A stretch of 63,348 nucleotides of DNA, filler included, from Circinaria calcarea (Eukaryota), in assembly GCA_051942165.1 (NCBI GenBank). It is 9 parts of 9 records of this genome, joined end to end, with 100 filler letters (N's around TTAATTAATTAA, not from the genome) between each part and the next. Parts side by side here need not be neighbours in the genome. Positions count along the whole stretch, not along the records: positions 28,256 to 35,212 come from JAVECS010001450.1; 8 more parts are not named here. One strand, given 5' to 3'. The stretch's first letter is position 1. Each line of letters begins with the position of its first letter. Both the position numbers and the translations under genes were made by a program. The notes under the pieces are model-generated. The model was not told the origin of the DNA, made no database searches, and saw only the letters and a program-made list of their open reading frames with translations. Of this stretch, positions 1,262 through 56,422 are shown in pieces.

Positions 1262-3246
1262 ATGATGGAACCTAATGAGCGTCTAGAGATCTGCTTCACA
1301 TCCCACCCATTTTCTTTTTCTTCGGTGCTGGTCGTCGATGAGAACCCAGTGGCCCAGAGCACCTTCCACCAGACGCAATGCACCAAGGCATGGGTCGGAG
1401 CTCTCCAAGCCATCGCCCAAGTCACCAAAACGTCCCAGGAGCCAATTGGCTCACGCTACCAATCTCCCTCATCCACCCTCAGCGGAACCTTCCCGCGAGG
1501 CTTGAACAGCCTTCACGGGATAAATGACCAAGCATACTCGGCGGTCGAACCAAGAACCGCGAGAAAACGACCTGTCAAGTCCAACGAGTTTACCGGGAAT
1601 GGTCTCCAAGCTCGGCCTGCGATTGCATCTACTGCTAGCAGAGACTCGAGATCAACGGTCACGCCACAAACAGGCGATGATTGGGTACGTTCATATGTGT
1701 TGCTGAGCGGAAAGGGAAAATGATACCTATCGGACCTCTGCCGTCAATTGCAGAACAGACTGTGCTAAAAGAGCAGTTTTTAGACCTTCGCTACCCCTTC
1801 TCCATCCTCTTCGGCAGACACCTATGCTACTGCTACGGCTCATTCGCCAACCGCTACAGGGAGGCGCACTTCCAACGTGCGGCCCTCTACGCTCTCCCGT
1901 TCCACTACAATGAGCAATGTATTTAACAGCCCTGAAGAAGCATCGATTGCAGATACAAGACTTATTTCTTCCCCGCAGCCTGTCGATACACTAACGAAGC
2001 CGACCATGGCAACACCCAGCACTATTAATGAGCCTGCTAAGTACTTTACAAAGCGGATGAGGAAACTCGAGACGCTTATTGACTCTATCCGAGAGCATGT
2101 AAAGCCTTCTCGTGAAGAACACAATGAGAAGGTGATCAACATCTACAATAGCCGAATATGCGTCTCACACATCAAACCTGCCTCTATGGAACATCTCGGT
2201 CGGCTTCTTGGCGAACTTGGGAAACTCTCAAATGCGCTAGGAATCATCTACTCACTGTTAAGTTGGGAAGTCTACAGGCGGGAAGAAAACCGATTAGTCG
2301 CAGAGGAAAACTTATCGCCGAAGTGGGCAGCCAAACTAGTTAGTTCCCTACTTACTAATCACCTTCCTTGGCTGAGCGAAATGGAATCTAGATTAACGAT
2401 TATATGTCTGAGCAATCCAGCCGCCAAGGAAGAACCAAAGATTGGGCGAGTGATAGAAGAAGGGCAGCTGGAATGGTGTTTGATGCGATAGCAGGGATGA
2501 GCTCCGTAGCCAAGTCGTTTGCAATTCTACTCCTGGCGGGCAAGTCTTGTTGAACCTACGAAAGATGCCGGTATTAACTAAAGTGATAGACCTAACTACC
2601 TTGGACGGACTTGTCAAAATCTCCCATTTTCCTGCTTTAAGAAAGCGTTTCACAATAGCTTTTGGAGAGATTCACCAATCACAGCAGCAGAGGTGGGGGG
2701 TTCTCGTGGAGAAAGGCTTTCGGGTTTTTGATTTTGAAGAAGTTTTACGCACACGGGAGAGATCTAGGGACTCGTAAGTCCATGTATTTGCAGGCTTGCC
2801 GGCATGCCTCATTGGAGCTTACCATTATATGAAATAGGCAAGCCAGCTCGCCCATGTCCGATTTCGAGTTGCCAGAACTTACACACTCCAACGCTTTTTC
2901 AACTCCGCTACGGGAACCAATCGATATTCACGAACAGCATTCCACGAGATCTAACAATGAAGTTCTAGGGAAACGTCCAAGAACAACCGATTCCAGTAGT
3001 CTAAGCGTAACGACTACGCCGATAATAAGGACCGAGCGAGGTGTAGCCAGGGGTTGGCTGCGTGATGGCTCTGTTCCCTACGGAAACAACAGCATCAATC
3101 ATGGAAATCTAATAGATGGGATAGACGAGCCTCTCGATCCATACATCTTCGACGATCCCTTGAACAACTTTGCCTTTCCACAAAGCCAGGACTTCGACAT
3201 GCTGTTCCAGACCGAGTTTGACAACTCTCTCCTCGGACAAGCTTAA
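1262..3246 (+). CDS. Hypothetical protein, 5 exons (1262-1684, 1784-2338, 2392-2539, 2584-2773, 2838-3246), about 574 aa, no recognised domain
   Basis: Pieces of ORFs 1208, 1877, 2547 and 2854, plus exon 2392-2539, join in frame through introns GTACGT..TAG, GTTAGT..TAG, GCAAGT..AAG and GTAAGT..TAG. Spliced length is 1725 nt, a multiple of 3. Confidence 0.6.
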
Positions 3247-3254
3247 TGATGGAG

Positions 3255-3546
3255 CTAGGACGATTGGATCTGCCCATCCATTGCATTAGCTTTCATAAAA
3301 TTGATCACTGTGTCCGCGCAAGTCTGTTGGATCATCTCCCACAAGTCGGATGGGAGGCAAATCTTCAGCGCCTCCTGGCTGCTTCCGTCAATGCGGAGGC
3401 GATCGCCTAGAGCACGGAAGGTAGGGAAAGCGTCACGTTCAAAAATACGAAAGGGGATGTGGGAGTGTTTGAGGACCTGGGTAAAGGCTAAGCCGGTAAG
3501 GCCGGCGCCGATTAGGAGAACTGGCTGGGATGGGTGGTTGGGCCAT
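3255..3546 (-). pseudogene. Truncated FAD-dependent monooxygenase (N-terminal Rossmann fragment only)
   Basis: PVLLIGAGLTGLAFTQVLKHSHIPFRIFERD...GDRLRID (GxGxxG motif plus acidic end of beta2). The nearest ATG (3546) is out of frame and the frame stops at 3255 after about 95 aa. Confidence 0.7.
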
Positions 3547-6966: not shown

Positions 6967-7066
6967 NNNNNNNNNNNNNNNNNNNNNNNNNNNNNNNNNN
7001 NNNNNNNNNNTTAATTAATTAANNNNNNNNNNNNNNNNNNNNNNNNNNNNNNNNNNNNNNNNNNNN
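6967..7066. other. Artificial contig spacer N44-TTAATTAATTAA-N44
   Basis: 100-nt N run with a core that gives stops in all six frames. Confidence 0.99.
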
Positions 7067-14031: not shown

Positions 14032-14131
14032 NNNNNNNNNNNNNNNNNNNNNNNNNNNNNNNNNNNNNNNNNNNNTTAATTAATTAANNNNNNNNNNNNN
14101 NNNNNNNNNNNNNNNNNNNNNNNNNNNNNNN
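14032..14131. other. Artificial contig spacer
   Basis: Same N44-TTAATTAATTAA-N44 linker. Confidence 0.99.
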
Positions 14132-21095: not shown

Positions 21096-21195
21096 NNNNN
21101 NNNNNNNNNNNNNNNNNNNNNNNNNNNNNNNNNNNNNNNTTAATTAATTAANNNNNNNNNNNNNNNNNNNNNNNNNNNNNNNNNNNNNNNNNNNN
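21096..21195. other. Artificial contig spacer
   Basis: Same linker. Confidence 0.99.
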
Positions 21196-26882: not shown

Positions 26883-28155
26883 ATGGCGCTATCTCGTACT
26901 ATCACTAACGAAAAGGGGGTTCAGGTCGAGGACACGCGCATTGCCGTGGTTATGGTTGGTCTGCCAGCTCGAGGGAAGAGTTTGATTGCGCAAAAAGGTA
27001 ACTCGTGCTCAGCATATGATCCTCAACCATGGCTGATCCATGCTCTCATCCAGTCGTTCGGTACCTTGGATGGCTCTCGATACCCGCCAAAACCTTCAAT
27101 GTCGGCTCCTACCGACGCCAAGATACCCCTCAACCGACGGCAGACTTCTTTGACACCAAAAATTCAGAAGGGGAGCGCCTTCGTCATGCTGCGGCTGAGG
27201 CTGCCGTGACGGACATGATCAAGTGGTTCGATGACGGGAAGGGGATAGTGGCTATCTTGGACGCGACGAATTCCACCAAAGCACGCCGTCGCTGGGTTCG
27301 TCAGCGCTGCCAAGCAGCGAATATCGAGACTTTGTATGTAGAGTCAAAGTGTGATGATGAAGCCTTGATCATGAGCAACATACTGGAGGTCAAAACAACC
27401 TCGCCGGACTACAAAGGACAGGATCCAGAGGTTGCCGCGCAAGATTTCCTTAATCGGATCCGCAACTATGAGAAGGTGTATCAAACAATCGACGAAGACG
27501 AGAAGGATCTGACCTACGCCAAGCTCATCAATGTTGGCAGGCAAGTCATCATCAACAACATAAAAGACTACCTCCAAAGTCGTGTGGTCTATTATCTCAT
27601 GAATCTGCACATTAAACCACGGTCCATATGGCTTTCACGTGTAAGTCATGTTACACCACCGTCTTGTGCCCCGGCTAATGTCCTTCCCCAGCACGGCGAA
27701 TCGGAGTATAATCTGCAGGGAAAAATCGGCGGGGATGCCAACATCTCACCACGTGGAGAACTTTACGCACGAGCGCTCCCCTCTCTCGTCGCCAAATCTG
27801 TCCCGCCTGATGTCGCCCTCACCATCTGGACCTCCACTCTGCGTCGTACCATCCAAACTGCCCGCTTCCTCGCCGCGTCCGACAAGAACTATACGAAGCT
27901 CGAATGGAAGGCCTTGGACGAACTCGACTCGGGCGTCTGCGACGGTCTCACATACCAAGAAATCGCCGAACGCTACCCCGAGGATTTCGCGGCCCGCGAC
28001 GAGGACAAGTACAACTACCGCTACCGGGGCGGCGAATCGTACCGCGATGTCGTCATCCGCTTGGAGCCCATCATCATGGAGCTGGAGAGGAGCGAGAATG
28101 TGATTATTGTCACGCATCAGGCGGTCCTGAGGTGCATCTACGCCTACTACATGAA
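26883..28155 (+). CDS. FBP26: 6-phosphofructo-2-kinase/fructose-2,6-bisphosphatase; 3' end truncated
   Basis: MVGLPARGKS Walker A, FNVGSYRR, DATNST, intron-split SR|HGES phosphatase motif, YRGGESYRD, HQAVLRC. Confidence 0.93.
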
Positions 28156-28255
28156 NNNNNNNNNNNNNNNNNNNNNNNNNNNNNNNNNNNNNNNNNNNNT
28201 TAATTAATTAANNNNNNNNNNNNNNNNNNNNNNNNNNNNNNNNNNNNNNNNNNNN
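28156..28255. other. Artificial contig spacer
   Basis: Same linker. Confidence 0.99.
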
Positions 28256-28277
28256 CTTAAATAACATCACCAAAATG

Positions 28278-28612
28278 TGATACATATAGCTTTACCATAT
28301 TTAGAGAGTAAATGCTTTTAGGAAAGTCCGGAGCCTTATTGGTTTATGCATATTTGTAATAACAATTTATATTATTACAAATATACAAGGGTAAAAACCT
28401 AGGTATTTAACAGAAAATAAAAATTATATTTCTTTCATTTTATTTTTTTGGTTTATTAACCAAAAAATAAAAAAATAAAATAATAAAGAAAAAAGATAAA
28501 GAGAAAGCTCTTTTCTCCTTACTTAGTATTATATAATGGCGAAATTTAAAGCCTAAACCAGGCCTTTATTTAGATTCATATCTATTAACAGAAACCGGCT
28601 TATATGTGTTCA
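28278..28612 (+). ncRNA. rnpB: Mitochondrial RNase P RNA
   Basis: CR-I GGAAAGTCCGG (28321-28331) and CR-V ACAGAAACCGGCTTA (28588-28602) can form P4 (AAG-U-CCGG with CCGGCUU). The ends pair as P1 (TGATACATATA / TATATGTGTTCA). A CR-II-like ACAGAAA lies near 28410, with AT-rich hairpins in between. Confidence 0.85.
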
Positions 28613-29153
28613 AAAAAAAATAATTACTTTTTTTATCCTCTTTTCAAATATGAATAAAGGATTAGATATTCCTTTTTTATTTTTTTATTAGGTGCCATAT
28701 CCCCTTTTTTAATATATGCACTCATATCATAGAACATGATGTTTAAAATATTTACTTCTAAACTTAATTAGAATCTTAAGTTAATACACTTAATCCTCTA
28801 TTGCTTCAATTATGAAATGAGTCTCTACATATCCATAAAAAAAGTAAATTTTATACGATTATCTCTTCATTATGTTCTAAAAAGAGACAAAAAAGTCTTT
28901 TGCTATCATTAGAAATAGCAAAGTTTTAAGATTACTAATTAGAAATATTTTTATTCTAACATTAATGTTATTATTAATAAGACTAAATTGGATAAAGGTG
29001 TTAAAGTCTGAAAGATTATTTAAAGGGTATTTGTTTAAAATAAAACATCCTAAAGGTTAATTTCTAAATTACATTAGTATTGGATTAGATTAATTCATTT
29101 TTTTTTTGGAAATAATAAAGAAAGAAAATTCTTTATAAAGTAAATATATAATT

Positions 29154-29240
29154 GAGTTTGATGATGGCTCTGAATGAACGCTGTCCAAGTGCTTGACACA
29201 TGCTAATCGTACGTCTAATTTTATTAATTTTAATTTAGTA
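29154..29240 (+). rRNA. rns: 5' fragment only (about 85 nt) of mitochondrial small-subunit rRNA
   Basis: GAGTTTGATGATGGCTCTGAATGAACGCTGTCCAAGTGCTTGACACATGCTAATCG matches the conserved SSU 5' end. The expected downstream GGTGAGTAA block and the rest of rns are absent. Confidence 0.85.
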
Positions 29241-29575
29241 ATATGGTATGTCTAAATGCAAATCTAAAATTTAGAGAGATCTACCGGTTTTTGGTTTTAA
29301 AATAGTTAAGCTGAACATTAGAGGTTACTTTTTAGAGAGACTGTGCTTTCTTCTCACCAAGGTGATACGGTTATTTACTGTTATTATCTCTGTATAAAGA
29401 CTGTGTTTAGTCGAAAAAAGGATATTTTATTATTTTTTTTCTTACTAATTAATTTTATACGCATTTGGATATTTTCTTATATATTCTAAACCAAAAGAGT
29501 TACATCAGCAATAGAGGGTTAGGGGTCTATTTAGAGATAATATTTCTATACACTAGACTACCAAATTTACTCTTG

Positions 29576-29589
29576 GCTACGAGAGGGAT
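29576..29589 (+). rRNA. rnl: 14-nt rnl exon piece immediately before the mL2449 intron
   Basis: GCTACGAGAGGGAT resembles the fungal mt LSU GCTACGCTAGGGAT (E. coli 2436-2449) and can pair with the intron guide sequence GTCCT (P1, with a U.G pair). Confidence 0.65.
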
Positions 29590-31615
29590 TAAATGTTAGT
29601 CCTCCATTGTTTATATTATTCTTCGGAGAAGAAGATAAACTATTGTAAACATTTGGGTAAATTTAAAGAAAAACTTCTTTTTTATCTAATAGGATAACAA
29701 GTATATTTGAAGCGAAATTTACTTGAGCATCTTTTTTATATCTTTAATTAAATATCTTAAAAGAAAAGAAGTAAGAACGTTCAACGACTAGAAGGTGAGT
29801 ATTGCTAGCAATAACCTTTTACTAATGCCCAACATCTTTAGAATCAAACTATCTAAAATATATTGGATATATCTTAAAGATTTAAAATTTAAAATATTAA
29901 GATATATCTGTAGAATAATTAATATTGTTAAATCAATATTAGTGAAAGAGACTAAACTAATAAATTAAAAGTTTAGCTAAGGACAAAATGCTATCTAATT
30001 TAATCTAATGGCTAGAGTCCATTTTGGAAAAAAAAAATTAACATGTTAAATATTTTCAATTTAAAACTAAAAAACAACAAACCAGCTATTGTAGAGCATA
30101 AAGGTAATGATCTAGGTCGAACTAGACACTATCCTCCCGCGATTAAAGAGTGATTTAATAGTATTTATGCTTTTAATAAGAATACATCTAAGTTACTACC
30201 AACCGCGGACAAAGTTATAATCAAGTTAATAAAAAATTATTTTAACTTATTTAGCCGTAAATTAGAAAGAAAAATAAAATCTCGTCGTATACGTCGTTGA
30301 ATGAGAAGATTATCCACCAACAGAATACTAGTAAGTAGAGCAGAATTAAAGCATACTAGTGATAAAGTAAATATTACTTTGTATATTTATAACAGACAAA
30401 AGAGATATTTCCTTAATAAAGAAAAAAGAATCGCGACACTAAGGTTATTAAATAAAATACAATTTTCAAGAAAAATGAAATTGCTAAAAATTAAAGCTTC
30501 GAATGTTATTTCCAAGGTTAGAAAAGAAAAAGATCTCTTGCTTAATACCAAAACACTTAGATGAGAAAATGACAACTTTAAAAATCATGAAATGAATTAT
30601 TATGCAAGCTTTTTGAAAAAATCTTTCGAAAAAGAGATGCTATTTATGTATCTTAAACAGATTATATCTTTTAATAAATTTAAATTTGAAAATACTTATC
30701 TATTACCACTTAAAAGCTTAATAGAGAAAGTATATAATAAAAAAGTAGAGTTTAATCTAGTAAATATAAAATATTTACATTTAAATAGTGATATCTTTTC
30801 TGGAATCTTAGCTATAAAACTAAGAAATAGAAAAAATAAACTCTTAAGAGTTTTAAAAGCTTCTATAAGAAAGGTTAAATTACCATCTTTAAATAAATTA
30901 GCTATCTTAGATGAAGTATATAATAGACAAAAAAAAGCACAAAATTTAAAGATTAAAGATTTAATATCTCATCCTTTATTTTTAAAAGCAAAAATACAAA
31001 ACAATGATGCTCTAGATCAAATATTGGTAAACTTTTTTAAATTAAATGTTCAAAATGAATTTAAGAGTGATTTAGAAAATACTGTTTTAAATTCTATTAA
31101 ACATATACCTGTAAGTGGTATAAGGATAGAAGCTTCAGGTAGATTGACTAGACGAATTACTGCTGCAAGATCTGTTTTCAAGGTTAAGTATCTAGGTAAT
31201 TTAAAAAACATGGATTCTTCTTATAAAGGATTTTCATCCGTTATGTTAAGAGGTCATGTTAGATCTAACCTACAACATACAAAGTTAAACAATAAAACCC
31301 GTATTGGAGCTTTTGGAATAAAAGGCTGAATAAGCAGTATTTAAGTAACCAAAAAATAACTTTAAACCTTTTTAATCTCTTTTAATTTTTATTTTTTCTT
31401 TGACTTAAAAAAAAAAAGTATAAAAAAACCAAAAAAGAATTTCGAGAAGATAAAAGTATTTATTAAGAAATAAACACGTATTAAAGTTAACTTATTATTT
31501 TTTTTCGCTTTGCAATTAATTTAGATAGTTAGTAAAAAAAGATGAAGAAATAGTCTGAACCACCTTGTGAAAGGTGGAAATAAAGGATAAAGAGCCTTTA
31601 TGATAACAAATTTTG
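29590..31615 (+). mobile_element. Group IA intron at LSU position 2449 (mL2449) hosting rps3
   Basis: IGS TGTTAGTCCT (P1, and P10 with the 3' exon AACA); P3 TTGGG 29653 / CCCAA 29828; P AATTTAAAGAAA; Q ATTTGAAGC; R GTTCAACGACTAG 29779; S AAGAAATAGTC 31545 (P7 GACTA/TAGTC); terminal G 31615 followed by AACAGGCTAAT. Confidence 0.88.
30043..31344 (+). CDS. rps3: Mitochondrial ribosomal protein S3 (S5/Var1 family), 433 aa, genetic code 4
   Basis: One open frame when TGA=Trp (four in-frame TGA at 30151, 30298, 30562, 31327): GRTRHYPPAIKEWFNSIY, AELKHTSDKVNITLYIYNR, SGIRIEASGRLTRR, RIGAFGIKGWISS. Confidence 0.95.
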
Positions 31616-32155
31616 AACAGGCTAATTGCGCCAGAGAGTTCAAATTGAGTGCGCAGTTTGGCACCTCGATGTCGGCTTAGCTTATCCACATGAATGCAGG
31701 AATCATGAAGGGTGGGACTGTTCGTCCATTAAAAAGCTACACGAGCTGGGTTAAATACGTCGTAAGACAGTATGGTTTCTATCTTCTAGAGGAAATTAGA
31801 GTAAAATAAGGATAGCTCCTTCGTACGAAAGGAGTTGGAGATGTTAACCTCTGGTTTACCTGTTGTTTGTGCGCCCAATATTAATGTCAAAAGTAATTTT
31901 TTGATAGACCGGATATTAACATGTTTGGCAGGGTTGTTACTTCCCACTAAAGTAAAGTTTACCACATGCACGGCAGGAAGGCTAAGTTAGCTAAAGATAA
32001 GTGCTGAATGCATATAGGTACGAAACTTACCTTAAGATACTCTTAAATATACGTAGTTTAACACTACGATTTTAGATTTAGATTATTATCTAGATCTTAT
32101 TAATAGGCTTTAGTTGAAAGATTTTTAATTTTTTTAGGCATAAAGTACTAATTTC
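31616..32155 (+). rRNA. rnl: Mitochondrial large-subunit rRNA, 3' exon (part of domain V and domain VI); 3' end approximate
   Basis: AACAGGCTAAT, GTTTGGCACCTCGATGTCGGCT, GAGCTGGGTTAAATACGTCGTAAGACAG, a sarcin-ricin-like GTACGAAAGGA, GATAAGTGCTGAATGCATATA. Confidence 0.93.
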
Positions 32156-32212
32156 TTATTCTACTAAATAATACACTTATCATTATATTATATTTTAAAC
32201 AATAAGTTGTAA

Positions 32213-32283
32213 GCCTGGTTAGCATAAAAGTAATGCAACCGTTTTGTAATCGGTCGAAGTAAGTGCAATACTTGCACTGGGCT
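32213..32283 (+). tRNA. trnT: tRNA-Thr(UGU)
   Basis: Acceptor GCCTGGT/ACTGGGC; anticodon arm ACCGT-TTTGTAA-TCGGT. Confidence 0.9.
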
Positions 32284-32320
32284 TTTTTGTTTTAAGATTC
32301 TTTTTTTCATATAATTATAA

Positions 32321-32392
32321 GGCCCAATGGTCAAATGGTTAAGACATAACTTTTTCACTGTTAGAGTAGGGATTCGATTTCCCTTTGGGCTA
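32321..32392 (+). tRNA. trnE: tRNA-Glu(UUC)
   Basis: Acceptor GGCCCAA/TTGGGCT; anticodon loop TTTTCAC; T arm with TTCGA. Confidence 0.9.
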
Positions 32393-32445
32393 ATCTCGCT
32401 TATTTTTTATAAATTTAGAATAAACCATCTACGAATCAAATCATA

Positions 32446-32516
32446 TGCGGATTGATGTAATAGTAACATAACTGGCTCATGTCCAGTAAATAGGGGTGCA
32501 ATTCCTCTGTCCGCAC
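32446..32516 (+). tRNA. trnM: tRNA-Met(CAU), probably initiator type
   Basis: Acceptor TGCGGAT/GTCCGCA region; anticodon arm ACTGG-CTCATGT-CCAGT. Confidence 0.88.
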
Positions 32517-32547
32517 TTGAAATAATTCTTTTTCTTCTTAAAAAAAA

Positions 32548-32620
32548 AAGGCTATAGCTTAATTGGTAAAGCAAGCTGCTCATGATAGCTTAGATGAGTG
32601 TTCAAATCATTTTGGCCTTA
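32548..32620 (+). tRNA. trnM: tRNA(CAU), second copy (elongator Met, or Ile if C34 is modified)
   Basis: Acceptor AAGGCTA/TGGCCTT; anticodon arm AGCTG-CTCATGA-TAGCT; T arm GTTCAA. Confidence 0.88.
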
Positions 32621-32741
32621 AGGTTAACATCGACTATGTTGAAGTTAATTAACACATATACAATTTATCTATAAATATAAAGAGATTATTAAAAGATAAA
32701 ATTTAGTGTGTAATAATTTAATAATCTAAACTGCGAGTGCA

Positions 32742-32823
32742 GTCCGAGTGCTGGAATTGGTAGACAGTGCAAATTTAAGCTTTGTTGATGAAAATCGTGA
32801 ACGTTCAAGTCGTTCTTCGGATA
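32742..32823 (+). tRNA. trnL: tRNA-Leu(UAA)
   Basis: Acceptor GTCCGAG/TTCGGAT; D loop GGAATTGGTAGAC; anticodon GCAAA-TTTAAGC-TTTGT; long variable arm. Confidence 0.9.
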
Positions 32824-32960
32824 AGACCCTAAAGGGTCCTCTTAATATTGTATTAAGAAAAATAAAAAGCAGATTAAAATAAAACTATTAACAAAAAAGA
32901 AAATAAAACTATGAATAAAAAAGAAATATTGGCGACTATTACTACCGCTCGCACCTTACC

Positions 32961-33845
32961 TACGGTTATGGTGATCTAGAAAAACAGCAAATATGTACAG
33001 AGAATAAGAATAAAACAGGTATTTACAAATGAACCCACGCTATTTCAGGTAAAAGCTATACTCTTTAAATTTATTTAGTGTGTCTAAAGTGAACCTTCTA
33101 TCGGACTGTCCTTAACTTTTTATTATAAAAAAAAAATATGAAACAAAACAACCCAAAACTATTTTATTATCTTTACGCATTTCATTCCTCTTCCAGACTT
33201 ACTTTTTCCAGCTACTTGGGTGCTACGTTGGGTGCTACGTTGGAGAGAGGTTCTTCTTTGGATTTATCCTAACCTCAATATCATTGAAAGATAGATTTAA
33301 AAATTCTTTCAGTATTTCTTATCTTGAAAGGGAATCCAAGACTAAATACAGCCTTATTTACAGAGCATTACTAAAATACGGTTACTCTAGTTTCAAAGTC
33401 GATATCTTGGAATATTGCGACCGGTCAATTGTTGTCCGGAGGGAGCAATACTACTTGGATAACTTGGAATTAGGATATAACATTTTAAAAGTTGCCAGAT
33501 CTTTAGCAAAATTTAACCCCAGGGCCACCTCTTTTTTTTATGAAAAGATGAGTGTTCTTCTTAGTTTTTTTTATACTTTTTTTTATAAAAAAAAAGTCCA
33601 AGAAAAAAACTAAGAAAAACTAGGACGTACCCGGGATAAAGCTCTTAAGCTAAAGCTATCGGCTAATACACAGGCGCACGCGATAATTGCATCAGAAATT
33701 AGCACAAGAGAAACAAAAGTGTTTACATCCATTAGAAAAACTGCTAAATTTATAGGTATACATTCTTCTTCTCTTGCTAAATGATTAAATAAAAATAATA
33801 TTTATATGGGTCACGGCTTAAAATATTATTGTGTAAAAGAATTAA
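32961..33845 (+). pseudogene. Free-standing GIY-YIG homing endonuclease pseudogene interrupted by insertions
   Basis: Code-4 fragments: ENKNKTGIYKWTHAISGKSY / [insert] / GSSLDLS / LIYRALLKYGYSSFKVDILEYC..REQYYLD..YNILKVA / [insert] / NUMOD1-like VFTSIRKTAKFIGI. Confidence 0.85.
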
Positions 33846-35169
33846 GATTTCTTGATAGAAATTGTGTGGGTTAAACTTTCACCTTGGATATATGAAAAGC
33901 ATGAAATAATTTTTTTTTTATTTTTAGTATTTAAATATAGGTAGAAATATGCATTTTACATTTTTTTTTATAAAAAACGCTGTTGCATATTTAGGATAAT
34001 TTTTTGTATGGAGTGACTACTGGCAATTAAGCCTTCATTTTCCTAAAAAAAAGGCTATAAACCTAATTAGTATAACAGAACACACCTATGCTATAAATTG
34101 GGGCTATACAAAGGCAACTCAGCCAATAGTGCTTGGCGGCCTACTAGGTTTATTTTATATAAAAAACTAAACTATAAGTAAAAGTAATCAGAACGGATAT
34201 TTTACTTCTATTTGAAAACTTGTCTGTTACAACAAGAGTAAAATAAACATCCTTATTAAAGTCTTTTAGTTACAGAAAAAATCTCCTCACCAAACCAATA
34301 TATGTAATGTCACCCCATGTTCACAATATGGATAATCAAAATCCAGGTAGCTTACTGCAGGTGCAGAAGCATTAGGTATAACAAACACAACAAATTAAAA
34401 CATGAATCTAAAATATTCTGTAAACGGATCCTTATTAGTTTAAAATTGAGATCAAGTCTTACTAATTTGCCTGCCTCAGTTTCTAACTTTCATAATTGCC
34501 CCCCCTCTGATCTATATTAGAGTAATAGGAGGTGTATCTACATCTTTATTTAATGATTCCGTCTATCTTTTTTGCTCTAACCTTATACTTTATTTCTTTT
34601 ATTTTAATCTAAACAAGAGTTAACTGTTTAGATTTAGCTTTTTTTTAGAAAGTTTAGAGGCTTTATTACTTTAGATTTACCTTTCTATAGTTTAGCTCTA
34701 GATTACTACTACTCGCCTTCATTTTTCATCACTATAGATTGGGTTTCCATCGCTACAGATTGGTTTTGTTTCAAATAGTAACGTAACGAATATGAAACCT
34801 GTTACTAACTTTAGCTTTACTACGACAAAGAGGATTTATTTTCATTTTATTACTCCTAAGAAAAGTGATGAGAATAATTCTAATTTGAAAGCTTTCGCAT
34901 TATATGCCTTATATGACCCCCTAATGAATTCAAAGGATATTTGCGTGCCTCAGGGCTAATCCTTTAAGAAAGGCTTGGATAGTATTCGCATCAATAAGGG
35001 ATGGATGGATTTTTTTTTTTTATAAATTTACGTTAATATATAAGTAAGGTTAAGACTCATCTAAAAATATAATAATTTAAATAAGGAATCGAGAGTCTCC
35101 CATATAAAACTATTTTTTTTTTTAATCTAGTTATATATTATATATATATTTGTATGTTTTTTAAAAATA

Positions 35170-35205
35170 ACTGTACTTAGCAGGTAAATACCTGCTAAGT
35201 ACAGT
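35170..35205. repeat. Perfect 17-bp inverted repeat (hairpin with 2-nt loop)
   Basis: ACTGTACTTAGCAGGTA-AA-TACCTGCTAAGTACAGT. Confidence 0.95.
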
Positions 35206-35212
35206 AAAGGGG

Positions 35213-35312
35213 NNNNNNNNNNNNNNNNNNNNNNNNNNNNNNNNNNNNNNNNNNNNTTAATTAATTAANNNNNNNNNNNNNNNNNNNNNNNNNNNNNNNN
35301 NNNNNNNNNNNN
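35213..35312. other. Artificial contig spacer
   Basis: Same linker. Confidence 0.99.
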
Positions 35313-42253: not shown

Positions 42254-42353
42254 NNNNNNNNNNNNNNNNNNNNNNNNNNNNNNNNNNNNNNNNNNNNTTA
42301 ATTAATTAANNNNNNNNNNNNNNNNNNNNNNNNNNNNNNNNNNNNNNNNNNNN
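42254..42353. other. Artificial contig spacer
   Basis: Same linker. Confidence 0.99.
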
Positions 42354-49289: not shown

Positions 49290-49389
49290 NNNNNNNNNNN
49301 NNNNNNNNNNNNNNNNNNNNNNNNNNNNNNNNNTTAATTAATTAANNNNNNNNNNNNNNNNNNNNNNNNNNNNNNNNNNNNNNNNNNNN
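49290..49389. other. Artificial contig spacer
   Basis: Same linker. Confidence 0.99.
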
Positions 49390-56322: not shown

Positions 56323-56422
56323 NNNNNNNNNNNNNNNNNNNNNNNNNNNNNNNNNNNNNNNNNNNNTTAATTAATTAANNNNNNNNNNNNNNNNNNNNNN
56401 NNNNNNNNNNNNNNNNNNNNNN
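56323..56422. other. Artificial contig spacer
   Basis: Same linker. Confidence 0.99.

Follow-up and report, generated by a model that had tools for sequence, protein, structure and literature searches.

An intact mL2449 intron with rps3 behind a 14-nucleotide exon remnant and an rns stub in a mitochondrial contig of Circinaria calcarea

Genes around a truncated rnl exon

The window analysed here is a stretch of 63,348 nucleotides (nt) from assembly GCA_051942165.1 of Circinaria calcarea, and it holds one mitochondrial contig in which a complete group I intron at the mL2449 site of the large subunit ribosomal RNA (LSU rRNA) gene rnl, the ribosomal protein gene rps3 within that intron, the rnl 3' exon and five tRNA genes follow one another in working order. 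Where the long rnl 5' exon would be expected, the contig has 14 exon-like nt only, and these are preceded by a stretch of DNA without recognisable homologue, hereafter B, by the first part of the small subunit (SSU) rRNA gene rns, hereafter the stub, and by a probable gene for the mitochondrial RNase P RNA, rnpB (Table 1). Positions are window coordinates throughout and short sequences are given as their letters.

The final base of B is 29575 and the 5' splice site falls between 29589 and 29590. As read from the sequence, the intron guide sequence GTCCT, located just inside the intron, can pair with the last five nt of the 14-mer to form P1. The insertion site, ...GGGAT/AACAGG..., is that of mL2449 introns and the boundaries are equal in 15 of the 15 related metagenome loci (see below) that reach the 5' site; in 53 loci the alignment sets in at the very start of the 3' exon, and locus L013 aligns without interruption over 29576-32620. 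Rfam Intron_gpI gave no match at E values up to 1 and the intron core was judged from the collinear alignments, so the intact group I intron of the preliminary description is upheld by collinearity with relatives, conserved cores and the terminal G, but not by the covariance model. The rps3 frame is open under genetic code 4, with four TGA codons read as tryptophan, and it scores 58.7 bits against Pfam VAR1 (cut-off 33), in agreement with the intact protein of 433 residues that had been described. The 3' exon and the Thr, Glu, Met, Met, Leu series of tRNA genes had likewise been called normal, and are. Rfam LSU_rRNA_bacteria matches the 3' exon with 201 bits and covers the model from position 2049 onwards; at its start the match takes in 63 nt of intron (31553-31615), and this part of it is spurious. 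Rfam and ARAGORN each found four tRNAs, five in total; each of the five either scores 42-59 bits or is an ARAGORN call. tRNA-Thr (32213-32283) was found by Rfam alone, its anticodon TGT being read by eye.

Table 1. Features of the window, and run contigs of relatives that bridge the stub and B
Feature	Position	Strand	Remarks
Probable rnpB (mitochondrial RNase P RNA)	28271..28620	+	ends from a relative's RNA contig joining 28620 to 28271
Repeat unit in relatives	29028..29239	+	~120 nt of rns upstream region and first ~90 nt of rns; from relatives' contigs
B, 336 nt	29240..29575	+	no recognisable homologue; adjoins the stub in relatives in runs X1, X4 and X6
Exon-like 14-mer GCTACGAGAGGGAT	29576..29589	+	12/14 identical to invariant rnl GCTACGCTAGGGAT
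Complete group I intron, mL2449 site	29590..31615	+	collinear with relatives from first to last base; terminal G
rps3, 433 aa	30043..31344	+	intact under genetic code 4; Pfam VAR1
rnl 3' exon	31616..~32159	+	3' half of peptidyl-transferase region and sarcin-ricin domain; starts AACAGG
tRNA cluster Thr, Glu, Met, Met, Leu	32213..32823	+	Rfam and ARAGORN
Remnant of probable GIY-YIG-type homing endonuclease gene	32919..33874	+	degenerate; downstream of tRNA-Leu; broken frames
Mitochondrial contig, stand-alone, 6957 nt	28256..35212	+	GC 0.20-0.43 in 200-nt windows
6PF2K/His_Phos_1-type gene (6-phosphofructo-2-kinase / fructose-2,6-bisphosphatase)	27005-28155		on preceding nuclear contig; Pfam
Linker	28156..28255		divides preceding nuclear contig from mitochondrial contig
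Linker	35213..35312		leads to next, unrelated contig
Linkers, all	6967-7066, 14032-14131, 21096-21195, 28156-28255, 35213-35312, 42254-42353, 49290-49389, 56323-56422		artificial
X1 record 1	29165-29409, then 29408-29555 after 128-nt insert		bridges stub and B
X4 record 14	29109-29425		bridges stub and B
X6 record 22	29206-29409		bridges stub and B

Normal layout in relatives and the two joins

When metagenome contigs were searched with the rps3 protein, 80 related loci came up, the best of them with 65% and 58% protein identity. Similarity to the contig, as seen by blastn, begins exactly at 29576 in 15 of these 80 loci, which are all those that reach the site, and all 15 read ...GGTCTTGGATT(T/A)TTGAAAAA GCTACGCTAGGGAT directly before the intron, that is, they have conserved rnl exon there. 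The contig departs from GCTACGCTAGGGAT at two adjacent positions, 29582 and 29583, and has unrelated DNA upstream; the 14 LSU-like nt with two deviating bases reported earlier are thus borne out as GCTACGAGAGGGAT against GCTACGCTAGGGAT in 15/15 relatives. Rfam confirms rnl upstream of the intron in L001 (1-825), L013 (958-2797) and L074 (6788-9629), and the order in L074 is rnpB-like sequence, rns (1646-3277), tRNAs, rnl and rps3. Motifs of rnpB type are found on the same strand upstream of the rns start in L037, L062 and L063, and one such motif in L080, among 12 loci with an rns start. Since rnpB-type sequence precedes rns in relatives, the stub occupies the place where rns normally begins, and to judge from the sequence B would seem to stand in the contig for all that normally extends from rns position ~90 to rnl position ~2436.

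The stub (~29150-29239) matches the rns 5' ends of 12 loci at 84-97% by blastn, slightly more than the ~85 nt of SSU 5' end first recognised, and the matching parts of L074 and L013 are confirmed as SSU rRNA starts by Rfam. The blastn matches start at 29112-29142 in L080, L041, L046 and L054, and the sequence upstream of rns is accordingly partly conserved. B, by comparison, gave only AT-rich low-complexity matches in the 80 loci and nothing in Rfam, so that the ~335 nt formerly called unrecognisable remain so at 336 nt. B has no similarity to the rnl starts of L074 and L013, and it does not look like a decayed open reading frame, its longest frame being at most 55 aa with nothing gene-like by eye. 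A conserved 33-mer of B had 0 matches in viral_contigs, where no relatives of rps3 were found either. No second copy was found of the 28-nt filler at the end of B and the beginning of the 14-mer (29556-29583) in the loci, or of a 19-mer of this filler in the window.

Closer relatives are known as contigs from public runs only, the best run sharing 0.24 of the words sampled from the contig. The comparison covered four runs, each from a different study, whose contigs were aligned at a likeness of at least 88%: X1 from biocrust, X2 and X4 from soil and X6 from biocrust RNA. Runs X5 and X7 to X24 were left out of this comparison, and all statements on run contigs apply among the pieces listed. The four runs contain fungi that are ~95-96% identical to the contig in intron and rps3. 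The join between stub and B at 29239/29240 is bridged in at least three studies (X1, X4 and X6), and because these are independent the join is, as far as the sequences tell, an old and real feature of the lineage and not a scramble of the present assembly. In X1, X2 and X6 there are furthermore contigs that match the stub up to 29239 and then run on with sequence typical of rns, whereas at the other end two X2 contigs match only from 29028 rightwards and X1 has a joint to the opposite strand at 29028. The segment 29028-29239 consequently has two left and two right contexts, the right ones being true rns or B, and the start of rns with ~120 nt of upstream sequence is therefore duplicated in the lineage, as the preliminary description had suspected for the rns 5' end. 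Some relatives may also have a local tandem duplication of ~80 nt immediately before the stub, as suggested by loose contig ends at 29070-29151 in X4 and by comparable ends in X2.

The depth of contigs carrying B equals that of contigs carrying the intron in X1 (10.6 versus 9.93) and X4 (5.26 versus 5.49) but not in X2 (2.46 versus ~13), and the equal depths indicate that B is mitochondrial and single-copy relative to the intron in two of the three DNA runs. The depth of B in the RNA run X6 (7.77) was not counted as transcription, since DNA may be present in that library. When the contigs are compared, B shows 19 changes and 2 gaps over 245 nt, 9 changes and 17 gaps over 148 nt, and the 128-nt insert, as against 70 changes and 14 gaps over 1783 nt of intron and rps3 (X1 record 2); by this measure B appears to change among relatives about as fast as spacer.

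The second join, that of B to the exon-like 14-mer, is a different matter. X1 record 1 has 30 further letters past 29555 that are not aligned to the contig, and X4 record 15, the intron of which is ~96% identical, matches from exactly 29576 with 74 unaligned letters before. The 20 nt between (29556-29575) are covered by no contig of X1, X2, X4 or X6 among those listed, which is not evidence of absence. The two joined segments are in any case non-adjacent in a normal genome, as seen from the order in relatives as well as from X1 record 1 and X4 record 15.

Signs of decay were sought by counting, for each sequence, the changes at columns where all other sequences agree. Over the 3' exon and tRNA-Thr (27 sequences, 307 fully invariant columns) the contig has a single unique change, at 31840, while relatives have 0-16; put differently, at the 308 columns where the 26 relatives all agree, it has one change. 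Over the last 190 nt of the intron and 40 nt of exon (10 sequences) the contig has one change, in a poorly aligned column, and relatives have 0-5, and over the first 285 nt from 29576 (10 sequences) it has 10, two of them in the 14-mer, and relatives 0-11. One pair of changes is compensatory, since 29653 C>T goes with 29832 G>A and turns CTGGG/CCCAG into TTGGG/CCCAA with the helix kept. By these counts intron, rps3, 3' exon and tRNAs resemble functional mitochondrial genes, or else a copy of them made very recently. Two changes in 14 exon positions, compared with one in ~308 in the 3' exon, suggest that the 14-mer deviates because of damage connected with the junction and not by slow drift.

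Remainder of the contig and layout of the record

The segment 28271-28620 is probably rnpB, as suggested by a weak RNaseP_bact_a match (13.1 bits, E 0.15, at 28545-28618), by a blastn match to L074 1456-1512, upstream of the L074 rns, and by motifs that we take to be CR-I and CR-V. The earlier placement of rnpB upstream is hence weakly supported by the RNaseP_bact_a and L074 matches, the E value being poor. In one X6 contig, with a depth of 232, position 28620 is followed by one additional A and then by 28271, which would fit a circular or permuted RNA of ~350 nt at the putative rnpB, or a tandem copy in a relative.

Downstream of the tRNAs, the endonuclease remnant scores 19.1 bits against NUMOD1, under the cut-off of 22.8, and is 81-82% identical at the nt level to L021 13733-14286; the two halves of the remnant, searched against Pfam, gave no GIY-YIG match. 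Its endonuclease-like frame is broken by a 188-nt insert (33058-33245, with a tandem 12-mer inside) that is lacking in the relatives of X1, X2, X4 and X6, which skip 186-188 nt. In X1, sequence like that at 33203 is found inverted beside 29028, and this suggests that the insert is a small element or a recombination hot spot shared with the rns-start repeat. The ~1.2 kb at the 3' end of the contig (34000-35170) have no match in the 80 loci and no gene-like frame, and are partly collinear with close relatives. The contig ends in a perfect 14-bp hairpin with arms 35171-35184 and 35191-35204, and palindromes of this kind often break assemblies. A terminal direct repeat, as a circular subgenomic contig would have, was not found among the 20 largest repeat families listed.

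The window as a whole is a chain of ~9 separate contigs of roughly 6.9 kb each, sorted by falling size. A script scan of the window found eight identical 100-nt linkers, N44 + TTAATTAATTAA + N44, and the pieces between them measure 6965, 6964, 6960, 6957, 6941, 6936 and 6933 nt, in addition to two end pieces. The 12-mer TTAATTAATTAA has stop codons in all six frames, and the regular six-frame-stop spacer together with the size-ordered pieces identify the window as part of a pseudomolecule of concatenated contigs. The use of such separators is known from bioRxiv 10.1101/2023.02.08.527609, with a different spacer that contains the same 12-mer. Since the linkers are artificial, any feature that spans one is an artefact of concatenation. 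In the composition profile, 28256-35212 is the sole AT-rich island in surroundings of ~48% GC. The preceding nuclear contig ends within its 6PF2K/His_Phos_1 gene, cut at profile position 158 of 194, and because such neighbours are other contigs behind linkers, the apparent nuclear flanks of the mitochondrial piece carry no meaning.

Origin of the junction and comparison with known systems

With moderate confidence we favour the explanation that the contig contains a non-working recombination junction in real mitochondrial DNA. We infer that a normal rnl exists elsewhere in the organism and that the junction arose by illegitimate recombination, by which the segment of rnpB, stub and B, present also in related fungi, would have come to lie a few bases before the mL2449 5' splice site. 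Such a join would remove all that normally lies between, including the rnl 5' exon of more than 2.4 kb, and leave the last 6-14 nt of this exon. The rearranged form would coexist with the normal rnl, either as a partial duplicate in the main genome or as a subgenomic or heteroplasmic molecule. If a short fragment consisting of pseudo-exon and intron start were duplicated, an assembler might thread B into the single true copy of intron, rps3, 3' exon and tRNAs, and the contig would then overstate the extent of the copy; if the whole 5.6 kb were duplicated, or if a deletion molecule were concerned, the contig could be taken literally. Because the pseudo-exon keeps the five guide-pairing bases, a transcript started upstream of the stub could still be spliced in cis, and this would free the rps3-bearing intron and yield a chimeric, non-ribosomal exon product. 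The deviating 14-mer speaks for a real junction, since positions 29582-29583 differ from 15/15 relatives and an assembler invents no substitutions. The junction is therefore not a simple false join of two true loci, and reads with GCTACGAGAGGGAT must exist. The same explanation draws on the bridging of stub and B in three studies, on the equal depth of B and intron in two of three DNA runs, on the normal layout in more distant relatives, on the lack of decay and on the partial gene duplicates known from fungal mitochondrial DNA. Relatives moreover seem to differ from the contig at the second join, if the unaligned letters of X1 record 1 and X4 record 15 are correctly taken as other sequence or as normal exon.

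Some observations nevertheless weigh against a recombination junction beside a normal rnl. Neither a normal rnl 5' exon nor a full rns was found (0 matches), the search being within the 63-kb window only. The contig passes the junction and runs on for 5.6 kb unbroken, and with de Bruijn assembly this would suggest that there was no equally covered competing path with a normal 5' exon. In addition, X1, X2 and X6 contigs carry the normal exon end directly before 31616, exon to exon, and other fungi, whose rnl is intron-less, may be their source. Pezizomycotina with such an rnl exist according to PMC5626475, and as they may supply these contigs, the latter are no proof of cis-splicing in a close relative.

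It should also be considered, although we find it rather unlikely, that the junction is absent from the organism and that B was joined to rnl in a chimeric clone or read or by a wrong path in assembly. This notion is in agreement with the facts that the junction is seen in this contig only, that the assembly is fragmented into contigs of ~7 kb, and that X1 record 1 and X4 record 15 depart from the contig on either side of 29556-29575. However, a join of true sequences would not yield a 14-mer that differs from the invariant exon at two adjacent positions, it would take a coincidence for the B side to end in sequence so close to that of the exon, and the contigs have no internal N, gap filling not being evident. 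The rearranged copy and the assembly product, both of which were proposed in the preliminary description, cannot be separated from the present sequence alone.

A nuclear insert of mitochondrial DNA (NUMT), in which two mitochondrial fragments were ligated end to end, is improbable. End-joining typically gives joined segments with short filler, and the contig does show two non-adjacent mitochondrial segments with ~20-28 nt of unassignable filler (29556-29583), and moreover has nuclear contigs as neighbours in the record. It is not attached to nuclear sequence, though, since both sides are artificial linkers followed by other contigs, and the flanks proposed as a check, while examined, could for this reason not serve as nuclear flanks. 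Furthermore, decay is not seen (rps3 is open, five tRNAs are present and one change is unique among 308 columns), a test that a very recent transfer would escape; a fresh copy would presumably share its k-mers with organelle DNA, which is far more abundant, and would hardly be assembled into a separate 7-kb contig; and the join of stub and B is mitochondrial in relatives by depth. The scrambled NUMT suggested initially is accordingly disfavoured, its GC-rich surroundings being other contigs behind linkers.

Least probable of all is that rnl is truly split and the contig its sole 3' module (545 nt, with the complete mL2449 intron), transcribed from the duplicated rns upstream region and either joined through a bimolecular P1 to a separately encoded 5' part of 2.4 kb or kept as an rRNA fragment. 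In favour of this, none of intron, rps3, 3' exon and tRNAs is out of working order, an intron helix shows a compensatory change, the contig crosses the junction unbroken, the sequence upstream of rns that comes with the stub is conserved in part in other fungi, and split rnl genes rejoined by group I trans-splicing are described in a green alga and a fern (PMC3873408, PMC10027690). Against it, the gene is contiguous in 15/15 relatives that reach the site, the close relative of X4 record 15 seems to have different sequence before 29576, the breaks described lie inside the intron (in L8 or near P9.1) and not, as in the contig, in the exon beside a complete intron, the guide sequence would also be open in cis to the competing pseudo-exon, and B evolves like spacer. 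The split gene with trans-splicing that had been put forward is thus disfavoured too, and rather than a working split gene the contig most likely represents a rearranged spare copy or an over-extended assembly.

If so, the finding is routine and serves as a warning that draft fungal mitochondrial contigs can carry non-canonical joins. Independently of this, the rns start and its upstream region are duplicated in fungi of soil, biocrust and rock, with one copy heading unrelated DNA, and the different rearrangements among relatives mark the region around the rns start as a recombination hot spot. Should the split gene after all be true, it would be important, as Pezizomycotina would have their first discontinuous rnl and natural group I trans-splicing would gain a further mode.

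Compared with known systems, the contig agrees with the mL2449 rps3 intron of Pezizomycotina in its site, in the VAR1-type rps3 inside, in the terminal G and in its collinearity with 15 loci, and with Pezizomycotina rnl in the Thr, Glu, Met, Met, Leu tRNAs that follow it; this intron family is described in PMC5626475. It differs in being without the 5' exon of more than 2.4 kb, in the place of which there are 14 nt with two changes behind unrelated DNA and the rns stub.

With trans-spliced split rnl genes the contig shares that the 5' and 3' parts of rnl are not adjacent and that a group I intron is located at the break. The natural trans-spliced group I introns described in PMC3873408 and PMC10027690 have their break within the intron itself, the two parts of which pair in L8 or P9.0/P9.1, whereas the present intron is whole, continuous over 29590-31615 and collinear with cis relatives, and the break is found 6-14 nt inside the exon. 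The known cases are likewise backed by joined exons from reverse transcription PCR or RNA data. To our knowledge, group I trans-splicing with the whole ribozyme on the 3' piece has so far been seen only with engineered ribozymes.

The contig is also reminiscent of systems with duplicated leaders or promoter-bearing gene starts, in that the first ~90 nt of rns and ~120 nt upstream occur twice in relatives, once before B in place of rns. Rearranged subgenomic forms of mitochondrial DNA, such as the senescence, 'stopper' and 'ragged' derivatives, are well known in filamentous fungi, and the region of the rnl 3' end and tRNAs is a recurrent participant in such rearrangements. Partial gene duplicates are likewise found in fungal mitochondrial DNA, for example the 1332-nt partial nad2 duplicate of Stemphylium lycopersici (PMC5626475). 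With these partial duplicates and subgenomic forms the contig has in common a new junction of non-adjacent segments and the presence of gene fragments beside intact genes.

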